24,861 nucleotides of DNA from a bacterium (GCA_050125095.1 JASFEA010000030.1:1-24861); one strand, 5' to 3'. Counted from the stretch's first letter, positions 7,551-24,007 are shown. The notes: generated by a model from the sequence alone, not told the origin. Made by a program: numbers and translations.

Positions 7551-8798
7551 ATGGAGCGCCCGCATAGAGGAGCCATAAGGATTTGCCTGGCCGCCTGTCC
7601 GGCCCTTTTTCTGCTGGCCGGGACGGCCTTTGGCATGACATTGGGCGAGGCCGTGCAGCGCGCGACGGTGCATAACCCCGCGGTGGCCGGAGCCCATGAG
7701 AAATACATGGCGGCCGAGAGGGCCGGGAGCGAGATCGGCTGGGTGGCAGACCCCGTGCTGGCGCTCGGCTACAAGAGCGGCGGCTGGATGGCCAATGAAA
7801 GCATGCGGACCCTCATGATCGACCAGCCCATACCCTTCCCGACCAAGACTTCGGGACGGAAGTCCAAAGCCGGCCTCGTGGCGATGGCCGAGCAGGCGAG
7901 ATACAGAAGCCAGGTGAGGATGACGGTCAAGGCCGTGAAGGCCGCCTACATTGAGCTCCTCCTGGTCAATGCCACGATCGACATTTACGAGGAGGATCTC
8001 GAGGACGCGCTCGCGGTTATGGAGTCTGCCAGGCAGAAGTACGAGACCGGCGCGGCAACCTACCATGACCTCGCCGGCAGCCGCGTGAACGCCCTGCTCG
8101 CCGAGAATGACCTCCAGACGCTGAGGGAGGACGACCGCGTGAAGGCGGCCGCGGCCCTGCGGGCCGTGCTCGGTATGTCCGGCCGGGAAACGCTTGGCGA
8201 CCTCACCTTGCCGGAGGTTCCCGTGATGCAGGTCAAGTTGGAGAGTCTCGAGGTCTATGAAGCGTCGCTGTCGCCCGAGGTGGACGAGTACCGTTACAGG
8301 CTGGAGGCCATCGGCGAAGACATGAGCCTGGCGCGCCAGCGCTACATCCCCGACCTCAGGCTGCGTTACTGGACCGAGCGCAAGGATAGCGACATGGGTG
8401 AGATATCTACGAATGGATTCATGGTCTTCTTCAACGTGCCGGTGTGGTTCTGGAACACCGAGGCCTCAAAGGATGCCGCAGGCCATCGTTACGGCGCGGC
8501 GGAGTCCATGCTCAAGGCCGAGGTCGACCGTGTGACCCGCGACCTCGAGTCAGCGGTGGCGGCGTTCGCAGCCACCAGGGGCCGGCTGGTACTGGTCGAG
8601 GATGAGATTATCCCGGAGGCGGAGGCTTCATACCAATCCGCCATGACGGCATATGAAAACGGCGGCATAGATCTCGCGAGCCTGGTGGCCGCAAGGGATG
8701 TGCTCAGGGATGCGAGGCTGTCACGTGCGAGGCTCTGGGCGAAAGCCGCCAGGGGGCTCGCGGAAATAGAGAGACTCACGGGGCTCGCTTTCTACTAG
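7551..8798 (+). CDS. TolC-family outer-membrane efflux protein (CusC/CzcC-like)
   Basis: Signal peptide ending AFG, then TL.EAV..A..HNP, duplicated OEP repeats (KYETG / AYENG) and a C-terminal ERLTG. Confidence 0.85.
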   Translation: MERPHRGAIRICLAACPALFLLAGTAFGMTLGEAVQRATVHNPAVAGAHEKYMAAERAGSEIGWVADPVLALGYKSGGWMANESMRTLMIDQPIPFPTKTSGRKSKAGLVAMAEQARYRSQVRMTVKAVKAAYIELLLVNATIDIYEEDLEDALAVMESARQKYETGAATYHDLAGSRVNALLAENDLQTLREDDRVKAAAALRAVLGMSGRETLGDLTLPEVPVMQVKLESLEVYEASLSPEVDEYRYRLEAIGEDMSLARQRYIPDLRLRYWTERKDSDMGEISTNGFMVFFNVPVWFWNTEASKDAAGHRYGAAESMLKAEVDRVTRDLESAVAAFAATRGRLVLVEDEIIPEAEASYQSAMTAYENGGIDLASLVAARDVLRDARLSRARLWAKAARGLAEIERLTGLAFY

Positions 8799-8816
8799 GA
8801 ACATGGAATATACGAG

Positions 8817-10379
8817 GTGATGAGAATGAGAGCAGGCAAGACGAGAGGTTGGAGGCGATTTCGGGGTCTATTAGCGGCGGCGGTGCTGCTGTCTTCGGCG
8901 CTGCCGTTGATGTCGTCGGGCTCCCTGTCCGGGCCGCTGGGCGCGTCGCTGTGCCTGGCATCGGGTGGCGGCCAGGCCGATACGGTCTGGGTGTGCACCA
9001 TGTGCCCGGACGTGGAGGCAAGTGAGCCCGGGCGATGCCCGACATGCGGCATGAATCTCGTGCCCAAGGTGGCGGAGGCGGAACCCGCCGCCGGGCACTC
9101 CGGTCACGCCCGTACAAATGAAGTCCGCGAGTGGACCTGCGGCATGCACCCCTCCATAAGGTCGGAGCAGCCGGGCAAGTGTCCCGTATGCAATATGGAT
9201 CTCGTGCCTGTTGAGAAGGGAGAAGCCGGCGGGCTCGTCGAGCTCGACGCCGGACGGGCCGAGCTCGCGGGGCTGGAGCACGCCGAGGTGACCTACCTTC
9301 CGCTAATAAAGAGGATATGGGCCGTAGGCGAAGTCGACTATGACGAGACGCGGGTCGAGAACATCGCGAGCCGCGTCCCCGGCCGCATCGAGGACCTCAG
9401 GGTGGACTTCACGGGCGCGCGGGTCTCAAGGGGCGACGTCCTGCTCACCATATACTCCCCGGAGCTCATCACGGCCTTCAAGGAGTACAAGAGGTCGCTG
9501 GAAAGGGGCGGCGGGAGCGGAGCCGGGGCGGGTGCCCTGGCCGGATCTTCGCGCCGGAAGCTCCTGCTCTGGGGGCTGACGGAGGAAGAGATAGACGGCC
9601 TCGCCGCGATGGATGAGATACCGGACGAGATCCCCGTCCGGTCGCCCATCGCCGGCACCGTGATAGAGCGCAACGCCACGGAGGGCGAGTACGTCAAGGA
9701 GGGGGAGAACCTCTATATAATCGCCGACCTCTCGGGCGTCTGGATCATGAGCCACGTTTACGAAGAGGACATAGCGTTCATAGAGCCGGGCGATCCCGTT
9801 ACCATAGCCGCCGAGGCCTTCGCCGGCGAGGAGTTCCAGGGCCGCGTGACCTATATCGACCCGTACCTCGACAGGCACACCAGGACACTCGGCGTGCGGG
9901 TAGACGCCGAGAACCCCGGCCAGAAGCTCAAGCCCGGCATGTACGCGCGGGCGAGTTTCGAAACTCCGCTCAACCGGGAGAAGGGGCATTTCTACACATG
10001 CCCTATGCATCCTGAAGTGGTCTCGGCAGGGCCCGGCGAATGTCCCATATGCGGCATGTTCCTCGAGAAGGTCGAGGGCGGCCGGGTTCTGGCGGTTCCC
10101 AGGGAGGCAGTGGTACATGCCGGGAAGGCCTACGTGGTCTATGTCAGGCGGGGAGAGTGGTCTTACGAGCCCAGGCAGGTGAGTCTGGGCGAGCTTGGCT
10201 CGCTCAGGGGCGGCGAGGGCGGTTCCTATTATGAGGTTCTGGACGGGCTTATGCCGGGCGATGTCGTGGTGGCGCGCGGTGCTTTTCTGGTCGACTCTCA
10301 GGCCCGGCTCACCGGCCAGGCGACTTCCGCATACGGCGGCGCCATGAGCGTGGAGCCCGCCGGCGGCCATCATCACTAG
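8817..10379 (+). CDS. cusB: RND periplasmic adaptor, CusB-like, with three heavy-metal-binding domains
   Basis: Membrane-fusion-protein motifs (G.V.YDE, IYSPEL, SPIAG, LKPGM), three CxM(H/C)P...PGxCPxCxMxL modules and C-terminal HHH. Start may be at 8820 or 8826. Confidence 0.85.
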   Translation: MMRMRAGKTRGWRRFRGLLAAAVLLSSALPLMSSGSLSGPLGASLCLASGGGQADTVWVCTMCPDVEASEPGRCPTCGMNLVPKVAEAEPAAGHSGHARTNEVREWTCGMHPSIRSEQPGKCPVCNMDLVPVEKGEAGGLVELDAGRAELAGLEHAEVTYLPLIKRIWAVGEVDYDETRVENIASRVPGRIEDLRVDFTGARVSRGDVLLTIYSPELITAFKEYKRSLERGGGSGAGAGALAGSSRRKLLLWGLTEEEIDGLAAMDEIPDEIPVRSPIAGTVIERNATEGEYVKEGENLYIIADLSGVWIMSHVYEEDIAFIEPGDPVTIAAEAFAGEEFQGRVTYIDPYLDRHTRTLGVRVDAENPGQKLKPGMYARASFETPLNREKGHFYTCPMHPEVVSAGPGECPICGMFLEKVEGGRVLAVPREAVVHAGKAYVVYVRRGEWSYEPRQVSLGELGSLRGGEGGSYYEVLDGLMPGDVVVARGAFLVDSQARLTGQATSAYGGAMSVEPAGGHHH

Positions 10380-10394
10380 ACGGAGGAACAGCAG

Positions 10395-13300
10395 GTGATC
10401 GAGCGATTCGTTGAAGCATGTCTCTCGAGGCGGGGACTCGTACTTCTCGTGGTACTCGTGCTTGTGATACTCGGCGCGCTGTCGCTAAGGGAGACGTCGG
10501 TTGACGCGATTCCCGACATCGGCGAGAACCTCGTCATCGTCTACACCAACTGGCCGGGCAGGAGCCCGCGCGACGTGGAGGACCAGGTAACGTATCCCCT
10601 CACCGTCAACCTCATGGGCGTCCCGAAGGTCAAGACCGTGAGATCGACTTCCATGTTCGGCTTCTCGCTGGTCAACGTCATCTTCGAGGACAATGTCGAC
10701 TACTACTGGGCGCGCACGCGCGTGCTCGAGAAGCTCGAGTGGGCTTCCAGAGACCTTCCTGAAGGCGTCGAGCCCACGCTGGGGCCCGACGCGACACTCG
10801 TGGGCCAGATCTTCTGGTACGCCGTAGAAGGCGAAGGGCACGACCTGTATGAGCTGCGTTCGATAAACGACTATTACATCAAGCTTGCGCTTCAGTCGCT
10901 CAACGATGTGGCCGAGGTGGCAAGTGTCGGGGGGTTCGTCAAGGAGTACAGGGTCGAAGTCGACCCGGCGAAGCTCCTCTCTTACGGCGTCCCCGTGACG
11001 CAGGTGATCGGCGCGGTAAAGTCCTCCAATATGGACGTAGGGGCCGAGGTGCTGGAAGAGGGCGACACCGAGTTCGTTGTGAGGGGCGTCGGGTTCATAC
11101 GTTCGATTGAGGATATCGAGAATGTAGTCGTGGCCGCGCGGGACGGCGTTCCCGTTCTGGTAAAACATGTGGGCAGCGTGACCGTGGCGCCCGACTTCCG
11201 GAGGGGCGCGCTGGACAAGGACGGGAGGGAGGCCACGGGCGGCGTGGTGCTCATGCGCTACGGGGGCAATCCGCGCAAAGTGATCCGGGCGGTAAAGGGC
11301 AAGATCGCGGAGATAGAGCCCGGTCTGCCCGTCGGCGTTAAGATCGTGCCGTTCTATGACAGGACGCGCCTCATAGAGCAGACCACGCGCACGCTCGAGA
11401 TATCCGTGATACTCCAGATCGCGGCCACGGTGGTGGTGGTATTCCTTATGCTCGGCCATGCCGGCACAAGCGCAGCCGTGGCTCTGGGGCTTCCGGTCTC
11501 GATACTGGCGACCTTCATCGTGATGAACCTCATGGGGCAGACATCCAATCTGATGTCCATCTCGGGCATAGCCCTTTCCATAGGCGTGATGGTCGACAGC
11601 GGCATAATCATGGCAGAGAACATATACAAGAAGCTGGCGCTCTTTGCGGCCGCGGGCGGCACCGGCAGCAGGCTCGACGCCGTGAAGGCCGCTGCAAGAG
11701 AGGTCGCAAGACCCATCTTCTTCTCGGTAATCATCATCATAATAGCCTTCGCCAATATCTACTTCCTCAGGGGCCAGGCCGGGAAACTCTTCAGGCCGCT
11801 GGCGCTCACCGAGAATATCATCATGGCGGCTTCGGCCATACTGGCCATATCCCTTGTTCCGGTGCTCTCCTACTATTTCATCAGAGGGCGCGTCAGGTCG
11901 CTTGACGACAGCCGCCTGACGAGGGGCCTAATCAGGTCATACGGGCCAGTCCTGGGCTGGGTGCTGGATCATAAGCGAGCCGTTCTCGCCGTCGCTCTCA
12001 TCGTGCTGGTCGCGGCTTTCGTTTCGACGCGCGCCATCAAGTCGGAGTTCATGCCGCCGCTTAACGAGGGCGATATCCTCTTCATGCCGGTTCTTCTGCC
12101 CGGCGCGACCGTGGACCAGGTTATGGAGGTCATGAGGAAGCAGGATGAGATCCTGATGTCATTCCCCGAAGTCGACATGGTCGTGGGCAAGCTGGGGCGC
12201 GCCGAAACCGCCACCGACCCGGCGCCCGTATCCATGATAGAGACGGTGATACGACTCAAACCACGGGGCGAGTGGCGCCCCGGGCTGACGCGCGAGAAAC
12301 TAATCGCCGAGATGGACCGGTCGCTTGTCATCCCCGGCGTATCCAACATATGGACTCAGCCCATACGCAACCGGATCGACATGCTGGCGACGGGTATTCA
12401 GACTCCCGTGGGGGCCAAGATATTCGGGCCCGACCAGCGCGTCATAGAGCGCGTGGCCGTCGATGTCGAGCGCGTTCTGCGCGGCGTCGAGGGCGCGGTA
12501 AACCCGTTCGCCGAGCGCACAGGCGACAGACCCTATCTTGAAATCAGCGTGGACCGCGAGAGGGCTGCGCGGCACGGCATCAGCGTCGCCACGGTCAATT
12601 CAATAGTGGCCACCGCGGTCGGAGGCAGGAACATAAGCACCTTCTACCGGGGCAGGGAGCGCTATCCCATCAGCGTCACCTATGCGCCCGAGTACAAGGA
12701 AGATCCCGACCTCATCGGGCGCCTGCCCGTGCCGACCTCGCACATGGGCCAGGTCCCGCTTTCGCAGGTGGCGTCGATCGAGCGCACGCTGGGCCCGGCC
12801 ATGATAGCCACGGAAAACGCCGTTCCATACGGCAGGGTGTTCGTCAATATAGACCCGGACAGGACCGGTGTGCTGGACTTTGTAGACAGGGCCCGGGCAG
12901 CGGTGGCGAGCCAGGTCGACGTGCCGCCGGGCTACTTCATCTCCTGGGAGGGCCAGTACAAGTATGAGGTGGAAACTCGCAGGAGGCTGCTTCTCGTGAT
13001 TCCCCTCTGCCTGGTTGCGATCTTCATCGTGCTCTACATAGAATTCGGGTCCATGGGGTTGGCCGGCCTTGTGTTTTCGGCTCTGCCTTTCGCTTTCGTG
13101 GGCGGCATACTGCTCCAGCACGCCCTCGGGTACAAGTTCTCGACGGCGGTGTGGATAGGTTATGTAGCCCTGTTCGGAGTCGCGGTCGAAGACGGGCTCG
13201 CGCTCGTCGAGCATCTCAAGCACAAGATGGTCTCCTGGACGGGGGACACACGCGAGATGGTGATAGAGGCGGCCACGTATAAATTGAGGCCCATCCTCAT

Positions 13301-13487
13301 GACCACGGTGACCACCATACTGGCGCTCCTGCCCATCATGCTATCGAAGGGCACAGGCAGCGAGATCATGAAACCCATCGCCGCGCCCGTCGTGGGTGGC
13401 ATGGTGACGGCAACCCTCCTCAACCTCTTCATAGTGCCCGTTCTCTTCGCCCTCTATGCCCGGGGCAGGCGGAATACGGTTTCTTGA
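10395..13487 (+). CDS. cusA: Heavy-metal efflux RND permease, CusA/SilA type
   Basis: DAIPDI, VEDQVTYP, LGPDAT.VG, GVMVD and RPILMT. The three Cu(I)/Ag(I) methionines are in CusA-like contexts: EGDILFMP, TDPAPVSMIET and RNRIDMLATG. Confidence 0.93.
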   Translation: MIERFVEACLSRRGLVLLVVLVLVILGALSLRETSVDAIPDIGENLVIVYTNWPGRSPRDVEDQVTYPLTVNLMGVPKVKTVRSTSMFGFSLVNVIFEDNVDYYWARTRVLEKLEWASRDLPEGVEPTLGPDATLVGQIFWYAVEGEGHDLYELRSINDYYIKLALQSLNDVAEVASVGGFVKEYRVEVDPAKLLSYGVPVTQVIGAVKSSNMDVGAEVLEEGDTEFVVRGVGFIRSIEDIENVVVAARDGVPVLVKHVGSVTVAPDFRRGALDKDGREATGGVVLMRYGGNPRKVIRAVKGKIAEIEPGLPVGVKIVPFYDRTRLIEQTTRTLEISVILQIAATVVVVFLMLGHAGTSAAVALGLPVSILATFIVMNLMGQTSNLMSISGIALSIGVMVDSGIIMAENIYKKLALFAAAGGTGSRLDAVKAAAREVARPIFFSVIIIIIAFANIYFLRGQAGKLFRPLALTENIIMAASAILAISLVPVLSYYFIRGRVRSLDDSRLTRGLIRSYGPVLGWVLDHKRAVLAVALIVLVAAFVSTRAIKSEFMPPLNEGDILFMPVLLPGATVDQVMEVMRKQDEILMSFPEVDMVVGKLGRAETATDPAPVSMIETVIRLKPRGEWRPGLTREKLIAEMDRSLVIPGVSNIWTQPIRNRIDMLATGIQTPVGAKIFGPDQRVIERVAVDVERVLRGVEGAVNPFAERTGDRPYLEISVDRERAARHGISVATVNSIVATAVGGRNISTFYRGRERYPISVTYAPEYKEDPDLIGRLPVPTSHMGQVPLSQVASIERTLGPAMIATENAVPYGRVFVNIDPDRTGVLDFVDRARAAVASQVDVPPGYFISWEGQYKYEVETRRRLLLVIPLCLVAIFIVLYIEFGSMGLAGLVFSALPFAFVGGILLQHALGYKFSTAVWIGYVALFGVAVEDGLALVEHLKHKMVSWTGDTREMVIEAATYKLRPILMTTVTTILALLPIMLSKGTGSEIMKPIAAPVVGGMVTATLLNLFIVPVLFALYARGRRNTVS

Positions 13488-16240: not shown

Positions 16241-17365
16241 ATGTATCCCATCAGGATTTTCCTCCTGACATTGATCGCGCTGGCGGTCATCACGGGTATC
16301 AGATGCGGGGGCGACGGCCCCACTGACCCCGGTAACGGCGATTCCTACATCAGCATTACGCCCGACTCCACTGTGGTTATGATCAGCGCTTCCCAGCAGT
16401 TCGATGTATCTCATAGCGATGACGTACAGGACGTCATATGGTTCGTGGCCTCCGTCCGGGGCGGGACCCCGTCGACCGGTGTTGTAAATGCCTCCGGCCT
16501 TTATATCGCACCGGGCGCGGTGCCGGAAGACAGCACGGTGGACGTCAAGGTCTTCGCCGTCGGCAACTCGAGCCTAAGTGCGACAGCGACGGTGGTCATA
16601 AGAGGCGGCGGCGGCGCATCCAGCGTCAGGGCGGTTCCGGCCGACACGACGCTTGCCCCGGGCCAGCCCATGGTCTTCGATAAGGAGGTATATGGCTGTG
16701 CCTCAGAGGAAGTCGCCTGGTCGGTTGAGCCCCTCCTCGGGGGCGGTGTGGACGCGGGGAGCATCGGGCCCGACGGCTCCTATACGGTGCCGGCCGGTAT
16801 CGACCAGGGCATACGGCTTCTCGTGAGAGCGTCCAGCCAGACCTGCACGGACAGGACAGGAATAGCCGTTGTCACGGTAGTGCCGCCTCACGAGTTCATC
16901 GTCGAGCTCGAGGACTATGCCGAGAGCCATGACGAGGAGGCCGGCAACAATTACATCCGGATAGAGGCCTGCTCTAAGGCCAGCGGCGGGGCCATGGTGA
17001 AGGGCCTCGACTATATCGGCGAGTATATTGACGTGCCTTTTAATGTCGATGAGGCCGGGACATATGAAGTAACGCTGGCCTACGCGACCCTGCCCGGCGA
17101 CACCCTTGGAGCCACGGTGATATTCACGGGGTGCGGCTCGGCCCTCACCGAGCCGGAAGTCGATTTCTTCATGGACAAGGGCGCGGGGCTCGGGTGAAAG
17201 CTCGTGTATAAGGAGGCTGCCGGGAGCAGCACCGTGACTCTGAACAGCGGCCAGTGCACCCTCAGGTTCATGCATACGTATGGCATACCGCTCACCTACG
17301 GCCAGATGGACGCCCTGACTTTCGTGCGGGTGTTCGACACCCGCCTGGCCGCCGGAACGGATTAG
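16241..17365 (+). CDS. Secreted/lipoprotein with two Ig-like repeats and a CBM6/35-like domain; in-frame TGA at 17195-17197 (candidate selenocysteine, otherwise a nonsense lesion)
   Basis: Signal peptide plus C-GG, repeated 'P....V/L......F...' and 'G.I/V...G.Y..P' Ig-like units, and a CBM-like ELEDY..ASGG..V..GEYI...F.V.EAG.Y.V.L.YA. The frame stays open for 55 codons after the TGA (V.L.SG..TLRF...MDAL.F) to TAG 17363-17365. Confidence 0.7.
17212..17233 (+). promoter_or_regulatory. Candidate bacterial SECIS hairpin
   Basis: GCTGC-CGGGA-GCAGC stem-loop (17216-17230), extendable with GG/CC. The loop starts 23 nt after the UGA and has G as its second base. Confidence 0.5.
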
Positions 17366-17401
17366 GCCCGGCAAGGAGGCTTCGGCGCCGGGAGGGAACG
17401 A

Positions 17402-18748
17402 ATGACCACAGACCCGGCGGGCTTCGCCCCGGACATCAAGGAGCTTCTCGACGCCGGAAGCGCGGACGAAATACGCGGGTTCCTCGAGGAGTTCCAGCCG
17501 CATGACATCGCGCGGCACATCGAGTTTCTAGAACCGGAGGACATCGCCAGCGTCATGAGTATCCTCGGCGACCCTCTGGGCCCAGACGCCTTCCAGAAGC
17601 TCGATATCGAGACGCAGATCCCCGTCCTCCGCGTAATGCCGCGTAAGCAGTGCGTGCACCTGATCGAGGAGATGGACCCCGACGACACCACCGATCTCAT
17701 AAAGGCCATGCCTGAAGAACAAGCCGAGCGCGTGCTGCCGCTCATTGCGCAGGCCCGGCGTAACGAGATAGCGCGGCTCATAAAGTACGAAGAGGGCACG
17801 GCGGGATCCATCATGACCACCGAATACGCGGCCGTGCAGGCGAGCATGACGGTGCGCGAGGCCATAGCCTATCTCAGCGAGATCGCTCCCGACCGCGACA
17901 CCATATACAATGTCTTCGTTCTCGACGCCGACCGGAGGCTCGTCGGGGCCATATCGCTCAAGGACCTCTTCGTCGCGCCGCCGCATGCCGGGGTGAGCGG
18001 CGTCATGAAGACGGATATACAGGGGTTGGACGTCAACATGGACGTCGAGCATGTCGCCCATTACGTGCGGGACTACGACCTTGTATCGGCAGCGGTCGTG
18101 GACGAGCGGGGCCGCCTGATCGGCATAGTCACCATTGACGACGTCGTGGACGTCGTGGAGCAGGAAACCACGGAGGATATTTATCACTATGGCGCGGCCG
18201 GGGAGTACATGCGCTATTTCCCCTCCAACCCGCTCAAGCTCGCCGGCCAGAGGGTGATCTGGCTCATCGTTCTGGTGGCGGTGGGCTTTTTGTCCGGCAT
18301 GGTCCTGCACCGCTATGAGGGGCTTATAACCAGCATGTTCGCGCTTGCCGTGTTCATCCCGGTGATCAACGCCTCCGGCGGCAACGCGGGAACCCAGGCT
18401 TCTACCGTAATAATCAGGGGACTCGCGACCGGGGAGATAAACGTGACCGACTGGCTCAAGGTGTTCGGCAAGGAACTGGTCGTCGGCGTTACAATCGGCG
18501 TTGTAGTGGCCCTGGTCGCGGGCCTGAGGGGATATCTCATCGACAGCTTCAACCTCGCCTTGACCGTGGGATGCGCGATGATAGGCGTGGTGACCATCGC
18601 CACCATGCTGGGCGCGCTGCTTCCCCTGGTCTTTAAAAAGATCAATCTGGACCCGGCGGTTGTGTCCGGCCCGCTGATCGCCAGCATTCTCGATGTGGTG
18701 GCGCTGTTTATCTATTTCGAGATTGCCAAGTACATACTCAAGGTCTAG
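17402..18748 (+). CDS. mgtE: Magnesium transporter MgtE
   Basis: MgtE N-domain (MDPDD..D), TAGSIMTTEY, CBS pair, GGNAGTQ and DPAVVSGPLI..I.D. Confidence 0.95.
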   Translation: MTTDPAGFAPDIKELLDAGSADEIRGFLEEFQPHDIARHIEFLEPEDIASVMSILGDPLGPDAFQKLDIETQIPVLRVMPRKQCVHLIEEMDPDDTTDLIKAMPEEQAERVLPLIAQARRNEIARLIKYEEGTAGSIMTTEYAAVQASMTVREAIAYLSEIAPDRDTIYNVFVLDADRRLVGAISLKDLFVAPPHAGVSGVMKTDIQGLDVNMDVEHVAHYVRDYDLVSAAVVDERGRLIGIVTIDDVVDVVEQETTEDIYHYGAAGEYMRYFPSNPLKLAGQRVIWLIVLVAVGFLSGMVLHRYEGLITSMFALAVFIPVINASGGNAGTQASTVIIRGLATGEINVTDWLKVFGKELVVGVTIGVVVALVAGLRGYLIDSFNLALTVGCAMIGVVTIATMLGALLPLVFKKINLDPAVVSGPLIASILDVVALFIYFEIAKYILKV

Positions 18749-18816: not shown

Positions 18817-19491
18817 CTATTCGTCCTGGGCCGGGGTCCGGAACAGGGGAGTCTCTATTTCCGCGGGTTGCCCGGTGCCCGAGGCGAAGAGGAGTATGTC
18901 GAGGAGTATTCTCCGGTCGAAGTGAAGCCAGGAGAGGTATGTTTCAGACCACAGCGCTGAGGCCGTCCCGATCGCGGCCCCGCCGATGATGTCGCTGATA
19001 TAGTGGCGCTCAAGATAGACGCGGGAGATGCTCACAAAAAAGGCCATTTCGAATGCCTTCGGGCCCAGCTCGGGATAGTGCATGGCGAGGGTGGTGGCGA
19101 AAGCGAAAGCCGACGAAGCGTGGCTGGAGGGGAATGACGAGTTGTTCCGGTCGAGTTCCCCGTCGGGGCGGCGCCTGCCGACGATGTACTTGAGCGAGCT
19201 TACGAATGCCTCGGAGACGGCCATGGCCTTGGCGCTCGATTCGAGCCAGGCATATGCCCTGTCGTCGCCGTGCGCGACTATGGGTATGGACGTCTCGAGG
19301 TAATTCTCGTTCGACCAGAGCTCGGTAAGCTTGAGCATGGCGTGATCGTACGCCGTGGACCTGGTTTCGGCAACGCGGGCGAGGCCGTAGCGGTCGGGGA
19401 AGTTGGTGTAGAGCATGCCGGCCGCGGCGAGCGCGATGCCCGCGGCGAGCGCGGCGCCGAGAATTATGACAAGAGGCTTCAGGTTTCGCAT
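18817..19491 (-). CDS. PAP2 family phosphatase
   Basis: C1 K-x6-RP (KYIVGRRRP), C2 SFPSSH and C3 SRVYLERHYISD; N-terminal signal/TM segment. Confidence 0.85.
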   Translation of the reverse strand: MRNLKPLVIILGAALAAGIALAAAGMLYTNFPDRYGLARVAETRSTAYDHAMLKLTELWSNENYLETSIPIVAHGDDRAYAWLESSAKAMAVSEAFVSSLKYIVGRRRPDGELDRNNSSFPSSHASSAFAFATTLAMHYPELGPKAFEMAFFVSISRVYLERHYISDIIGGAAIGTASALWSETYLSWLHFDRRILLDILLFASGTGQPAEIETPLFRTPAQDE

Positions 19492-19549
19492 ACAGGCTCG
19501 AGACTAAGACCTCGGGGTGGGCGACACAAGCGGAAACCGGCCGGCGCGA

Positions 19550-20218
19550 TTATCGTATTCTGCGGGAGAAATAGATTTTCACCGAGCCCAGGCCCTCTCC
19601 CGCTTCCACCCTGATGGGTATCTGGCTCAGAACCTCGCCGCGGTCGACATGCCACCTCCGGAGGTAGCGGTTGGCGAGATACCCGCCGAGTACTCCTATG
19701 CCCGCTCCCACGATTACGTCGCCGGGGTGGTGCGCGTCCAGGTAGACTCTCGAATAGGAGATGAGGGCGGCCATGCCGTAAGCCGGGATCGTCCATCTGG
19801 GATAGTATGTCGAAACGCTGAATGCGACAGCGAAACTCGAGGAAGCATGGCTGGACGGGAATGATGAATTCGCCCGCGAGTGCGGCTCTCCGTCCGGGCG
19901 CTCGCGATTTACGGTCCATTTGAGCGCAGCCGTTGTCGACTCTGAGATGAGCATGGATTTCCACGCCAGCTCCAGGCATCTGAAGGCCCTGTCATCGCCG
20001 AGGGCCATTACGGGCAGCGACGCCAGTATGAGATTCTCCGGGTTCCATGCTTCGCTGACGTCCGTCATGAAGCAGTCCATCGAGCGGTATCGGCATTCAT
20101 CCGCCGACTCGAGGACTCTCATGTCGATCGGTTCGAGGCAGTATGAGCCGGTTGGCCGCGCGGCCGCCGCGGCGATAAGGGTGAATAACACGGCCAGTAT
20201 GTGCTTCGTCCGGGCCAT
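19550..20218 (-). CDS. PAP2 family phosphatase (paralog of the neighbouring gene)
   Basis: KWTVNRERP, SFPSSH and SRVYLDAHHPGD; N-terminal signal peptide. Confidence 0.88.
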   Translation of the reverse strand: MARTKHILAVLFTLIAAAAARPTGSYCLEPIDMRVLESADECRYRSMDCFMTDVSEAWNPENLILASLPVMALGDDRAFRCLELAWKSMLISESTTAALKWTVNRERPDGEPHSRANSSFPSSHASSSFAVAFSVSTYYPRWTIPAYGMAALISYSRVYLDAHHPGDVIVGAGIGVLGGYLANRYLRRWHVDRGEVLSQIPIRVEAGEGLGSVKIYFSRRIR

Positions 20219-20455: not shown

Positions 20456-21655
20456 ATGGACCAGGCAGCAATCGACAAGGGCAAGAAGCATTTTGGGGAC
20501 CTGATCAAGAGCCAGATGGAACGCGTGGAGATAATGAAGAAGGGCGAGGACTTCACAGACTACTCCAAGCTCAAGCCCATCATTATCGGCGTGCTTGGCG
20601 GGGACGGCATCGGGCCCTTCATAGCCGCGGAGGCGCAGCGGGTTTTGGAGGCCCTGCTGGCTGACGAGATCAAGGACGGCAGGGTCGAGTTCCGTGTGCT
20701 CGAGGGGCTCACCATTGAGAAGAGGGCCGAGGTCGGCAAAGCCGTCCCCGATGATGTGCTCGAAGAGATAAAGAAATGCCACGTCACTCTCAAGGGACCC
20801 ACCACGACACCCAGGAAGGGTGATCCCTGGCCCAATATCGAGAGCGCAAACGTCGCCCTGAGAAGATATCTCGACCTTTTCGCCAACGTGCGGCCCGTGA
20901 GGGTTCCGTCACAGGGAATCGACTGGATGTTCTTCCGTGAGAACACCGAGGGCGCCTATGTGCTCGGAAGTTGCGGCATAGATGTCACCGACGACATCGC
21001 CTTCGATTTCAAGGTTATCACCACGCAGGGTGCCGAGAGGATCATCCGGCTCGCCTTCGAGCATGCCAAGAAGGCCGGCAGGAAGCGGGTCACCATCGTC
21101 ACCAAGGCCAATGTCGTCAAGACCACCGACGGCAAGTTCCTAAGGATCGGCTACGAGATCGCCAAGGAGTATCCGGGCATCGAGTGCGATGACTGGTACA
21201 TCGATATCATGACGGCGAAGCTCGTCGACGAGAAGAGAAGGCGTGATTTCCAGGTCCTGGTGCTCCCAAATCTCTACGGCGACATCCTCACCGACGAGGC
21301 GGCCGAGTTCCAGGGCGGAGTGGGAACGGCCGGCAGCGCAAACATCGGCAAGAAGTACGCCATGTTCGAGGCCATACACGGGTCGGCTCCCAGGATGGTG
21401 AAGGAGGGCCGCGCCCAGCACGCCGATCCCTCCAGCATGATCCGCGCCGGGGCGATGATGCTGAACCACATAGGCTTCCCCGAGACGGGCAAGAAGCTCG
21501 AGATGGCTCTCGACATCTGCGGCCAGTACGAGAAGAAGGTAGTCATGACCGGCCGCCCGGGCGGAGGCACGGCGGAGGAGCTGGGCAACTACCTCCTCGA
21601 TACGATCAACGATCCCAAGATCGAGGAGAAGTGGAAAGGATACGTCGGACTGTAA
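20456..21655 (+). CDS. Isocitrate/isopropylmalate dehydrogenase family; most like isocitrate or homoisocitrate dehydrogenase
   Basis: GDGIGP, KGP.TTP, S-A-N-VALRR.LDL..NVRP, RENTEG.Y, KAN, PNLYGDILTD and FEAIHGSAP. ATG 20456 follows GGAGG. Confidence 0.88.
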   Translation: MDQAAIDKGKKHFGDLIKSQMERVEIMKKGEDFTDYSKLKPIIIGVLGGDGIGPFIAAEAQRVLEALLADEIKDGRVEFRVLEGLTIEKRAEVGKAVPDDVLEEIKKCHVTLKGPTTTPRKGDPWPNIESANVALRRYLDLFANVRPVRVPSQGIDWMFFRENTEGAYVLGSCGIDVTDDIAFDFKVITTQGAERIIRLAFEHAKKAGRKRVTIVTKANVVKTTDGKFLRIGYEIAKEYPGIECDDWYIDIMTAKLVDEKRRRDFQVLVLPNLYGDILTDEAAEFQGGVGTAGSANIGKKYAMFEAIHGSAPRMVKEGRAQHADPSSMIRAGAMMLNHIGFPETGKKLEMALDICGQYEKKVVMTGRPGGGTAEELGNYLLDTINDPKIEEKWKGYVGL

Positions 21656-23463
21656 TGATCCGTCTTGCAATCATAGCCGGGGCAATCACTCTGTTAGTTG
21701 CCCCGGCTCTTCTTCATTGCGCCGTTCCATCCGACCTGCAGTGCTACCTCGTACAGATGCATATCCACGCGCACACAAACCACAACGGCACCGACCTGCC
21801 TGCATCCATGGAATGGCACTGCGCCTATGCCCGGGAGTACGGATTCGATGTCGTGTGGTGGTCGGATCATGCGGAGGTGTTCGATACCTACCAGGACATG
21901 AGGATCTCATTCGGGCGGGCAATGATCAGCGATGACCGGAGGAGCATAAACCTGGGGATCACCGGAGGCCGCCGGCCGCTGTCTATGCTCGCCATAGACG
22001 CCACGAGGGACGGTTTTGATCTGGGAATCGAAGGGGCGCGGTTGAATGTCGGGCTCACTTCGCGGGGCAGCGGCGAGTTCGATACGGTGAGGCTCACGCC
22101 GGCCTCCAGAAGGGGGCCTGTCAAGACGGTGAGATTCTGCCGCCCGGTCACAAGCGGGCTGAGGTTCGTGGCAGTCATGGACTTCTCCGGGCCGCCGGAT
22201 GATTCGTTTTTGCGCTTCGGTTTCGACCTGGCCGCGCATCCTGAAGGACGCCATCATCTACTGTTCGATATAGTGCGCAGGCCCGGCGCCGGACCGAGGG
22301 TCATCGGAGATACGCTTGTTGTGGATGAAATGCTCGTGGAGGATTTCCCCGCAAGGCTCAGCTTCGATCTTGAGAGAACGGCGTCTCATCTGCCCGATGG
22401 CTATGATAACACCCTTGGCTCGGTCTATATTGAGTTTGGAGCCAGAAACGGAGCCACGGTCGAGGTGGCAATCGACAGCCTGATAGTGATAAGCGACCGG
22501 CCCGACGGAAGTAACCAGTACCGCGTCATAACTCAGCTGGCCGACCGGTATGAATCCCGATACGGCATTGCGCAGTACGTCGGCGTTGAGGCCAGCGGCA
22601 TGCACACACCGGAGTGCCCCCACATGAACGCCTTTTTCCCCGAGAGTACCGAGACTCTTGAAAACCTCGTCGTCGATCCTCGTTTGACGAGGGCGGAGTG
22701 GGCGAGGGGCGTCGAGAGGCGGGGTGGACTCGTGTCGCTTAACCACCCGTTCGGCGCAGCTCTGAACCCGGTGGGAAGGGGCCTCTACGAGGTAGATGCA
22801 AAAACTCCGCTTCGGGAGCTGTCCGCCAGAGCCGGGCCGATTCCCGAAGAAGACCTTTGGGCTGTGGCAGCTCCCATAATTGAGAGTGATGGAATGGGCT
22901 GCCGAATTATGGAAGTGGGATACCTCTTCCGTGGAAGCGGGACGCTTGCCGATCACCTGAAGCTCTGGGACCTGGTCCTGGCAAATGGCGTGAGGCTCGT
23001 GGGAAATGGTGTGTCCGACGCGCATGGCGGGATCTGGGGACCCGACATGAGACCTAATCCATTTGCGACCTGGATATGGGCCGAAGACAAAGACCGGGAC
23101 TCGTTGCTGGAGGCGCTTCGGGCCGGCAGGGTGTTCTTCGGCAATCCGTTTCTTTACCAGGGCGAGTTCATGTTCGGCGTGAATGATGTCCTCATGGGTG
23201 ATACGCTTTATGTCAGAGGGGGAGAGGAGGCGCGCGGGTGGGTGCGCCTGGAGACGCGGGTAGATGATCTGGAGATGCGGCTTGTGCACGTGAAGCTCGG
23301 CGCCGGAAGGGAGGCTCGCTATATCAGTCGGGATACGCTCGTGGACCCCGAGGGCGGCTTTTCGCTTGTTGTGAACGAGGCCGGTTTTGCGAGGATAGAG
23401 GTCTATGGACACGGCGGAGAGCCTGTCATCTTCAGCAATCCCGTGTGGCTGATCCCCCGGTAG
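21655..23463 (+). CDS. Secreted PHP-like (CehA/McbA-type) metallohydrolase
   Basis: Signal peptide, then MHIHAH, WSDH, GVE, PHMN, NHP, GVSDAH and C-terminal FSNPVW. Start overlaps the upstream stop (TAATG). Confidence 0.7.
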   Translation: MIRLAIIAGAITLLVAPALLHCAVPSDLQCYLVQMHIHAHTNHNGTDLPASMEWHCAYAREYGFDVVWWSDHAEVFDTYQDMRISFGRAMISDDRRSINLGITGGRRPLSMLAIDATRDGFDLGIEGARLNVGLTSRGSGEFDTVRLTPASRRGPVKTVRFCRPVTSGLRFVAVMDFSGPPDDSFLRFGFDLAAHPEGRHHLLFDIVRRPGAGPRVIGDTLVVDEMLVEDFPARLSFDLERTASHLPDGYDNTLGSVYIEFGARNGATVEVAIDSLIVISDRPDGSNQYRVITQLADRYESRYGIAQYVGVEASGMHTPECPHMNAFFPESTETLENLVVDPRLTRAEWARGVERRGGLVSLNHPFGAALNPVGRGLYEVDAKTPLRELSARAGPIPEEDLWAVAAPIIESDGMGCRIMEVGYLFRGSGTLADHLKLWDLVLANGVRLVGNGVSDAHGGIWGPDMRPNPFATWIWAEDKDRDSLLEALRAGRVFFGNPFLYQGEFMFGVNDVLMGDTLYVRGGEEARGWVRLETRVDDLEMRLVHVKLGAGREARYISRDTLVDPEGGFSLVVNEAGFARIEVYGHGGEPVIFSNPVWLIPR

Positions 23464-23510
23464 CCGCGTGAATATGAGTGGTAGTCGGACGGTTTGATTG
23501 GAGGTTCGCA

Positions 23511-23858
23511 ATGCTGATAATCGGCGTGATCATAGGCGCACTGGCTATGGTGGTGCTGGGGGAGCTGCCCATACTCGGCCCCCTCCTGGCAGGGTTCCTG
23601 GCCGGGGTGATCGCCGGAGGCGCGAGGCGCGGCGCCCTTGCCGGGTTCCTCAGCGGAACCATCGGAAGCATACTGGCCATGGCCGTGCTGACCGGGCTGG
23701 GCGCCTTCTTCGGCGGCCTATTCGCGGGCATACTGGGCGCCGGGGCGGGAGCGTTCATGGGCGCAATCGTAGGCATGGGCTTCTTCATCGTGAGCCTGTA
23801 CCTCGGGATACTCGGCCTCATAGGCGGCGCCATTGGCGGAGCTCTCAGGAAGCCTTAA
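23511..23858 (+). CDS. Small Gly-rich membrane protein (DUF5518-like)
   Basis: ATG follows GGAGG. LP.LGPLLAGFLAG...GG..RGALAGFLSG..G and GLIGGAIG; about 4 TM segments. Confidence 0.7.
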   Translation: MLIIGVIIGALAMVVLGELPILGPLLAGFLAGVIAGGARRGALAGFLSGTIGSILAMAVLTGLGAFFGGLFAGILGAGAGAFMGAIVGMGFFIVSLYLGILGLIGGAIGGALRKP

Positions 23859-23863
23859 GGGTA

Positions 23864-23892
23864 TTGACCTGTCGGGCCTTCTGTGCTAAAAT
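23864..23892 (+). promoter_or_regulatory. Sigma70 promoter for the Trp leader
   Basis: TTGACC-17 nt-TAAAAT with an extended TG (TGCTAAAAT). The predicted TSS at about 23898-23901 falls at the leader start codon. Confidence 0.75.
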
Positions 23893-23900
23893 TAGTGGTG

Positions 23901-23948
23901 ATGAAAGACCTGATACACATAATGAGCTGGTGGCGCACCTGGACGTAG
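23901..23948 (+). CDS. trpL: Tryptophan attenuator leader peptide MKDLIHIMSWWRTWT
   Basis: ATG AAA GAC CTG ATA CAC ATA ATG AGC TGG TGG CGC ACC TGG ACG TAG. It has three Trp codons, including the WWRT motif seen in E. coli TrpL. Confidence 0.85.
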   Translation: MKDLIHIMSWWRTWT

Positions 23949-24007
23949 GTGCGCCCGTCACTGCGTAACAGTTAATTGGCGGGACGCCAAGGCGTTTCCC
24001 GCCTTTT
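23932..24007 (+). promoter_or_regulatory. Ribosome-dependent transcription attenuator (1:2 pause, 2:3 antiterminator, 3:4 terminator)
   Basis: 1:2 is GGCGCACCT/AGGTGCGCC (23932-23955). 2:3 is GCGCCCGTCA (23951-23960) with TGGCGGGACGC (23977-23987). 3:4 is GGCGGGACGCC-AA-GGCGTTTCCCGCC plus TTTT (23978-24007). Confidence 0.8.

Follow-up and report, generated by a model that had tools for sequence, protein, structure and literature searches.

A gene on the plus strand of a 24,861-nucleotide contig from an uncultured bacterium (GCA_050125095.1 JASFEA010000030.1:1-24861; the whole of it is hereafter called the window) very probably encodes a true selenoprotein, the founding member of a so far unlisted family built on the fold of carbohydrate-binding modules (CBM) of families 6 and 35. 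The window is contig C30 of a source genome of 3.35 Mb that is 91% complete. An earlier inspection of the DNA, referred to below as the original prediction, had noted that the called open reading frame (ORF; 16241..17197, +) stops at ...DKGAGLG-TGA, that the same frame continues beyond this codon and that it ends shortly before mgtE, all of which the coordinates bear out. The TGA is the sole internal stop of the 16241-17365 frame, which stays open for 55 further codons, KLVYKEAAGSSTVTLNSGQCTLRFMHTYGIPLTYGQMDALTFVRVFDTRLAAGTD, and the gene that follows was identified as MgtE with Pfam. The elements on which the argument turns are listed here.

16241..17365 (+): complete gene read through the UGA, giving 374 residues with a putative selenocysteine (Sec, U) at position 319 and then TAG; the layout is the same in orthologs of related genomes
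17195..17197 (+): in-frame UGA, read as Sec319, in the motif G-x-G-x-G-U
17216..17230 (+): apical hairpin GCUGC-CGGGA-GCAGC of the candidate selenocysteine insertion sequence (SECIS), encoding A-A-G-S-S; assigned from covariation and from a loop common to selD and SelW-like genes
17363..17365 (+): TAG, taken as the true stop codon, 36 nt ahead of the mgtE start at 17402

Conservation of the UGA and of the frame beyond it

Comparison across genomes strongly supports the selenocysteine reading. Relatives were found in 20 of 61 related genomes by a six-frame search reading through stops. When 43 domain copies (42 unique) were aligned with TGA translated as U, this residue fell on one single column in every copy, and the same was true of all 44 rows of a separate, tool-made domain alignment (A2), in which the site has the form G-x-G-x-G-U. 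A profile search with A2 recovered the domain in 18/18 genomes examined of the source phylum, where each of the 44 matches spanning the site carries the internal TGA; a 45th match is a contig-edge fragment that starts with the in-frame TGA itself. The source genome holds four domain copies, on contigs C30, C80, C15 and C124, one of which is a contig-edge fragment. In a second phylum the domain was present in 29 of 121 sampled genomes, with one TGA in 35 of the 38 matches and none in the remaining three. Six copies from this phylum were read, comprising four Sec forms and two Cys forms with G-I-G-C and G-V-G-C at the U column; in both Cys forms (L071 and L074) the codon at this column is TGC.

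The whole gene was also present in assemblies from two other studies (X2, X4), with 10 substitutions over 1401 nt and the TGA unchanged. Eight of the substitutions lie within the gene, five of them synonymous and three conservative. A sequencing error at the TGA is excluded because two independent assemblies carry the gene with this codon intact. The coding sequence beyond the UGA is itself conserved: it includes the conserved domain columns G126 and D155, and in AlphaFold2 models it makes up the final three strands of a CBM6/35 jelly roll that is predicted with confidence (predicted local-distance difference test, pLDDT, ~88-97 for the three strands) and carries the conserved Asp. The expectation that the downstream frame would supply the missing final strands of the sandwich was thus borne out in the models.

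A profile searched against 1.84 billion cluster representatives yielded 1151 matches at E<=1e-3, of which the best 150 were examined. In 90 of these 150 clusters the protein stops directly ahead of the U column, with the terminus G-x-G-x-G; Cys occupies this column in 14 pieces, of which 13 are clear proteins of short or medium length with G-x-G-x-G-C. The candidate partner Cys of the Sec site, described below, is kept in all 13, once shifted by one residue. Names were retrieved for 10 Cys-form clusters and were all 'hypothetical protein' or missing, while the Protein Atlas returned for Cys form P0011 only 'hypothetical' and CBM_6 clusters, below 0.9. Classical multi-CBM pieces have Trp on the U column in 4/64 cases and within three residues of it in 31/64, with Tyr there in many others. 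Homologs with a conserved TGA or an aligned Cys had been named by the original prediction as the comparison that would speak for Sec, and both were found, the Cys in these 13 proteins and in the two copies read directly from DNA. Homologs with TGG, the opposite outcome it had named, did not turn up within the family; at or beside the column, Trp and Tyr are confined to the classical multi-CBM proteins.

The hairpin after the UGA and the decoding machinery

The proposed GCTGC-CGGGA-GCAGC hairpin is present as described (17216-17220 GCTGC, 17221-17225 CGGGA, 17226-17230 GCAGC). Counted from the A of the TGA, 18 nt separate the codon from the hairpin and 23 nt from its loop. Across the family the loop starts 23-29 nt after the UGA, the stem is 5 bp long and the loop reads CGGGA/G. 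The bSECISearch range for the distance from UGA to apical loop is about 16-37 nt.

Covariation was evaluated on 40 sequences (39 distinct; 195 cells) with 500 shuffles and with slid-register controls. Pairing was found in 96.9% of the 195 cells, and three of the five pairs showed double-sided changes; two of these switch between CG and UA, in 11 and 17 sequences respectively, and the other between GC and AU, in 5 sequences. Covariation scored 0.467, compared with 0.252 +/- 0.025 for the shuffles, none of which (0/500) reached it, and every slid register scored far below the true one. The SECIS-like nature first ascribed to the hairpin is therefore backed by compensatory changes. After U, all Sec forms have the peptide (A/V)(A/T)G(S/G)(S/D/G), and the coupled changes among AAGSS, VAGSD and ATGGG fit RNA pairing and not a protein motif; the A-A-G-S-S peptide appears 'conserved' because the hairpin lies in its coding sequence. 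Sec forms of the second phylum keep the hairpin, as GCCGC-CGGGA-GCGGC and GCUGC-CGGGA-GCAGC. The two Cys forms read at the DNA level cannot form it, and the AAGS peptide occurs in only one of the 13 Cys proteins.

Two other, established selenoprotein genes of the source genome provided a comparison for the loop. In its selD, AUAGGUC-CGGGC-GACCUAU lies 16 nt beyond the UGA; its SelW-like CxxU gene, a match to Pfam Rdx at E 7e-16, carries CUUCC-CGGGU-GGAAG at a distance of 21 nt from the UGA. These elements share with the family a C-G-closed five-base loop, CGGGN, at 16-21 nt there versus 23-29 nt here; they differ in stem sequence, and the stem of the family is shorter (5-6 bp). The SelW-like gene lies on contig C13 (L067:190-435), and the Sec-containing SelD on contig C59 (L004).

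The genome checks suggested by the original prediction located all four components, selA, selB, selC and selD. The selA match scored 491 bits, the SelB wing domain was found within a 630-codon frame, and selD gave two matches, one with an in-frame TGA of its own; the second selD match falls in a 753-codon open frame on contig C26, which may be a fusion. Aragorn reported one tRNA-SeC among 43 tRNAs, and this is the sole tRNA with a UCA anticodon. SelA was present in 5/5 other domain-holding genomes tested, including G052 of the second phylum. In the source genome TGA ends 981 of the 2267 open frames of >=300 codons and is the commonest stop of long frames. A global reassignment of TGA is thus excluded, since the codon otherwise behaves as an ordinary stop.

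Fold, candidate site and protein architecture

The remaining parts of the gene, as assigned from structure prediction and ortholog alignment, are the following.

16241..16306 (+): signal peptide up to the invariant Cys22, the probable lipid-anchor Cys, with a non-canonical lipobox G-I-R-C
16349..16603 (+): first all-beta stalk domain, possibly immunoglobulin (Ig)-like, residues 37-121; from AlphaFold2 secondary structure
16622..16879 (+): second stalk domain (residues 128-213), also all-beta and Ig-like, with the invariant Cys153 and Cys202; from AlphaFold2 and the ortholog alignment
16886..17338 (+): jelly-roll domain of the CBM6/CBM35 fold containing the putative Sec, residues 216-366; from AlphaFold2, Foldseek and VIA-align
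16970..16972 (+): codon of Cys244 (domain residue 42, motif C-x-x-A-S-G), candidate partner of Sec
17132..17134 (+): codon of Cys298, which occurs together with Cys339 (17255-17257) only in long orthologs

AlphaFold2 applied to 44 domain sequences gave a confident all-beta model (pLDDT 91.3). Foldseek placed CBM6/35 modules on top (E ~1e-6), and VIA-align superposed the model on 2cdo_A with Z 16.6 and a root-mean-square deviation of 2.5 Å over 135/138 residues. Profile matches in the Protein Data Bank included 8zvk_A (4.5e-7) and the CBM35 entries 2w47/2w1w (1.4e-3). With Pfam, CBM_35 was reached at E 0.032 and 15 bits, below the gathering cut-off of 28, and the paralogs and Cys forms gave no CBM match. 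The resemblance to CBM6/CBM35 modules (2cdo, 1uxz and 2w47; Z 14-16.6) thus comprises the beta-jelly-roll, a weak but significant sequence relation, the E-x-E ... D calcium ligands, the G-D-W-I-E strand and an extracytoplasmic location. Unlike those modules, the family has Sec/Cys in place of the region A aromatic and a Cys in the beta3-beta4 loop, and its module is not joined to a glycoside hydrolase.

Residues of the site were compared with the region A Trp (sugar stacking), the region C Asn and the structural calcium ligands as defined in the consulted portion of PMC9843283. The calcium ligands, two Glu in strand 1 and an Asp in the last strand, are largely kept in A2 (E20 in 39/44, E22 in 41/44 and D155 in 43/44 rows). 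The column of the region A Trp holds Sec in all 44 rows, and the region C position, two residues before the calcium-binding Asp, holds Asn in only three rows and Arg in 28. Cys is present at the Cys244 column in 41/44 rows, and the three rows without it, all of the class-level family f3, have a Cys two residues before U instead; four of the shortened public proteins end ...G-G-C-G or ...G-G-C-S. The pairing of Sec with the Cys of IEACSKASGG, ventured in the original prediction, is thereby partly supported: a Cys244-Sec319 pair fits their co-conservation together with one swap of the partner Cys. Among class-level relatives, the domain closes longer proteins with 4-6 Ig-like repeats (G017:C6, L022 and L036; G016:C171, L025). 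Genome G017 has tandem domain copies, and the class-level copies use C-x-U instead of the distant Cys.

In the full-length model (pLDDT 79.8) a signal helix at residues 5-17 leads into a disordered linker of low confidence, after which come two beta sandwiches, each of ~85 residues, and finally the C-terminal domain. The lipobox consensus that closes bacterial lipoprotein signal peptides is [LVI][ASTVI][GAS]C. Here Cys22 is invariant in 12/12 orthologs, and the residue at -1 is R/Q/N/H/S, not G/A/S. The term 'lipoprotein' first given to the product is only partly supported: an invariant Cys follows the signal helix, but the -1 residue departs from the norm, and lipidation at Cys22 may be proposed. 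Signal peptides are visible on family members. Surface display is suggested because one Cys homolog carries a type IX secretion system (T9SS) sorting domain and another fn3 repeats. A Pfam search with residues 1-210 found nothing at E<=1, and one homolog cluster bears a precomputed PF07679 match; the first stalk domain may be Ig-like.

Cys298 and Cys339 are nearly or fully invariant in the long forms and occur in 20/44 and 19/44 rows of A2, and probably form a structural disulfide. Short Cys forms have a different extra pair of co-occurring Cys residues, and the extra pairs of both forms are probably disulfides of exported proteins. A regular-expression scan of the whole genome for the tail ...E-P-(T/S)-T-W-G-x-I-K-x-(L/M)-Y-R-stop returned 47 frames, ~45 of them clear (e.g. 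on contigs C80, C15, C124, C3, C4 and C7). Tails of the TWGxIKx(L/M)YR type are present on the short Sec paralogs and on Cys forms of other phyla. On the two paralogs scanned, neither NCBIfam nor Pfam recognised the tail, which looks like a lineage-wide sorting tag.

Gene neighbourhood, alternative explanations and significance

Neighbourhoods were counted at 14 loci for orthologs of the window gene and at 14 loci (L053-L066) for the short paralog. HAL lies upstream of the orthologs at 9/14 loci and MgtE downstream at 6/14, with PAP2 genes adjoining as an alternative; this is a housekeeping gene order. The short paralog has a convergent Glycos_transf_4 gene downstream at 11/14 loci, with a DegT aminotransferase (10/14), a hexapeptide transferase (8/14) and an epimerase (6/14) nearby and seryl-tRNA synthetase upstream at 7/14. 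No shared operon with these sugar-modifying genes is indicated, because they lie on the other strand, and their synteny with the short paralog is a weak lead. Elsewhere in the window, a Cus-type heavy-metal efflux operon of the resistance-nodulation-division (RND) type at 7551-13487 (+) encodes an outer-membrane factor, a membrane-fusion protein with three heavy-metal-binding domain (HMBD) repeats and an AcrB/CusA-like pump. Tandem genes of the PAP2 phosphatase superfamily follow mgtE at 18817-20218 (-), with homologs beside the ortholog at L014, L015 and L019. Two further ORFs, at 21631-23463 (+; 610 residues) and 23498-23968 (+; 156 residues), have no Pfam match at E<=1e-5, and the 610-residue ORF recurs beside orthologs at L012, L014 and L019.

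As we envisage it, UGA-319 would be decoded as Sec, with SelB and Sec-tRNA(Sec) recruited by a short SECIS within the coding sequence. The product would be a 374-residue cell-envelope protein with a signal peptide and anchor Cys, two Ig-like stalks and a C-terminal CBM6/35 jelly roll, which would keep its structural calcium ligands while Sec replaces the sugar-stacking aromatic of region A and Arg mostly replaces the Asn of region C. In the former sugar-binding site, Sec and the Cys of the beta3-beta4 loop may form a chalcogen pair, and this could act on the cell surface either as a redox-active selenenylsulfide or as a ligand pair for a soft metal or metalloid. The family would comprise two architectures, a long anchored form and a secreted form of ~190 residues with the TWGxIKxLYR tail, as well as Cys-containing paralogs. 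Taken as a whole, the further-reaching proposal is tentative, and we rate its chances at somewhat less than even: that a lectin-type CBM6/35 module was turned into a surface-displayed chalcogen active site, with Sec for the stacking Trp and a loop Cys, that captures or transforms an extracellular ligand through a selenenylsulfide or a soft metal; and that its family, multi-copy and phylum-wide in Candidatus Eisenbacteria, would be the first among selenoproteins to have a carbohydrate-binding fold, and would be hidden in public databases as truncated 'hypothetical proteins'.

Alternative explanations were weighed for the codon and for the function. That the TGA is a genuine stop, leaving a 318-residue truncated or decaying CBM-like lipoprotein and a relic frame downstream, is scarcely credible. 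Gene callers do end the gene there, 318-aa public entries exist and the read-through product is known from sequence alone; yet in two phyla the frame is open and keeps its conserved residues and the three strands predicted for it, as a relic would not, a compensated hairpin would not persist in it, and the truncated domain would lack the calcium-binding Asp and one third of the sandwich. It is likewise very improbable that a suppressor or near-cognate tRNA reads the UGA as one of the standard amino acids, be it Trp, Cys or Gly. The Trp or Tyr at or beside the column in classical CBM6/35 relatives, and the existence of Cys paralogs, would be in keeping with such decoding, whereas it is opposed by the ordinary use of TGA as the commonest stop of long frames, by tRNA-SeC as the sole UCA-anticodon tRNA, by a site-specific hairpin after the codon with a loop as in the SECIS of selD and the SelW-like gene, and by SelA in every other holder tested.

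If the product is a selenoprotein, its Cys/Sec pair might instead bind soft metals or metalloids (Cu, Hg, Cd, As or Se) at the cell surface, possibly together with the invariant G-x-D Asp, as a binding or chaperone module and not as a redox catalyst. We consider this unlikely, if well within reach. The partner Cys can move to C-x-U, a spacing suited to chelation, the RND efflux operon with its three heavy-metal-binding domains lies in the same window, and exported metal-binding selenoproteins are described in the consulted portion of 10.1101/2022.07.06.499078; however, HAL and MgtE are the only genes that recur beside orthologs. More doubtful still is a protein that remains an envelope glycan-binding lectin, with Sec/Cys tuning or covalently capturing the sugar. 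The retained CBM6/35 fold and calcium ligands agree with a lectin, as do Glycos_transf_4 and the further sugar-modifying genes near the short paralog, but both signature sugar-binding residues are lost (region A Trp to Sec, region C Asn in all but three rows) and those neighbours lie on the opposite strand.

Several observations weigh against a selenoprotein with a chalcogen site. The support for Sec is comparative in nature, and the compared genomes are kin, so that counts and shuffles overstate independence. The stop codon after the 90 shortened public proteins is deduced. The stem of the hairpin is merely 5 bp long; Rfam on 17100-17400 at E<=10 returned no SECIS family, only a chance match to a frameshift element; and searches of the whole genome for G-rich loops on 5-bp stems downstream of an in-frame TGA gave 11 and 88 matches, mostly noise, and were useful only to pick out the family copies, selD and the SelW-like gene. 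The RNA-library record (run X9) is a single contig of 230 nt that covers 16526-16755 and so ends before the UGA is reached, and for which DNA carry-over is possible; the lack of cover over the remainder of the gene is neutral. As regards the site, the swap of the partner Cys is confined to family f3 and may be a single event, neither of the two neighbourhoods (14 + 14 loci) contains a redox or metal partner, and the redox or soft-metal role suggested for Sec/Cys derives from its position only.

The original prediction had not recognised the gene as a member of a known selenoprotein family, and the searches agree. With NCBIfam release 20.0 at E<=1, no family was found for the window protein P0001, two paralogs, one f3 copy and two of four Cys forms, and the matches on the other two Cys forms (P0054 and P0075) fall outside the domain; nor did Pfam match the domain at its gathering score. 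Deng et al. reportedly described in 2026 (Cell Rep) candidate selenoproteins from groundwater metagenome-assembled genomes. A literature search found nothing linking a selenoprotein with CBM6/CBM35 or with Eisenbacteria, though a listing that is unpublished or in supplementary data is possible. Table 1 of a May 2026 review (PMC13188914) gives 119 prokaryotic selenoprotein families without a CBM, jelly-roll or lectin family, and most known prokaryotic selenoproteins are, according to this review, thioredoxin-fold redox proteins; BSepDB, in the portion consulted, compiles 111 families from earlier reports.

The closest parallels are found outside the cytoplasm. SaoB/SaoX, which belong to the SAO system and appear in the PMC13188914 table, are, as far as the consulted portion of Haft & Gwadz describes them, extracytoplasmic (lipo)proteins with Sec in a ligand-binding site, database entries typically cut at the UGA, and Cys counterparts. 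They differ from the window family in their ATP-binding cassette (ABC) substrate-binding protein fold, their CU dipeptide or UxP motif and their dedicated nine-gene locus; no such locus was seen around the window family. Periplasmic thiol:disulfide selenoproteins (DsbA-like, DsbG-like and thiol:disulfide interchange proteins; PMC13188914) likewise have extracytoplasmic Sec/Cys pairs and Sec-to-Cys exchange among homologs. Those proteins, however, have a thioredoxin fold and a local UxxC motif, whereas the window family has a jelly roll with Cys and Sec ~75 residues apart, or C-x-U in one lineage.

The function is open to experiment: expression of the domain with U changed to C should be feasible, for use in redox, metal and glycan assays. 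Databases could be corrected for no fewer than 90 clusters (50% identity) whose gene calls are wrongly truncated, and the family provides a compact, well-compensated SECIS with the loop CGGGN for a poorly known phylum. If the proposal is true, a secreted or anchored jelly roll that carries Sec at its ligand position would extend the range of chemistry ascribed to selenocysteine.

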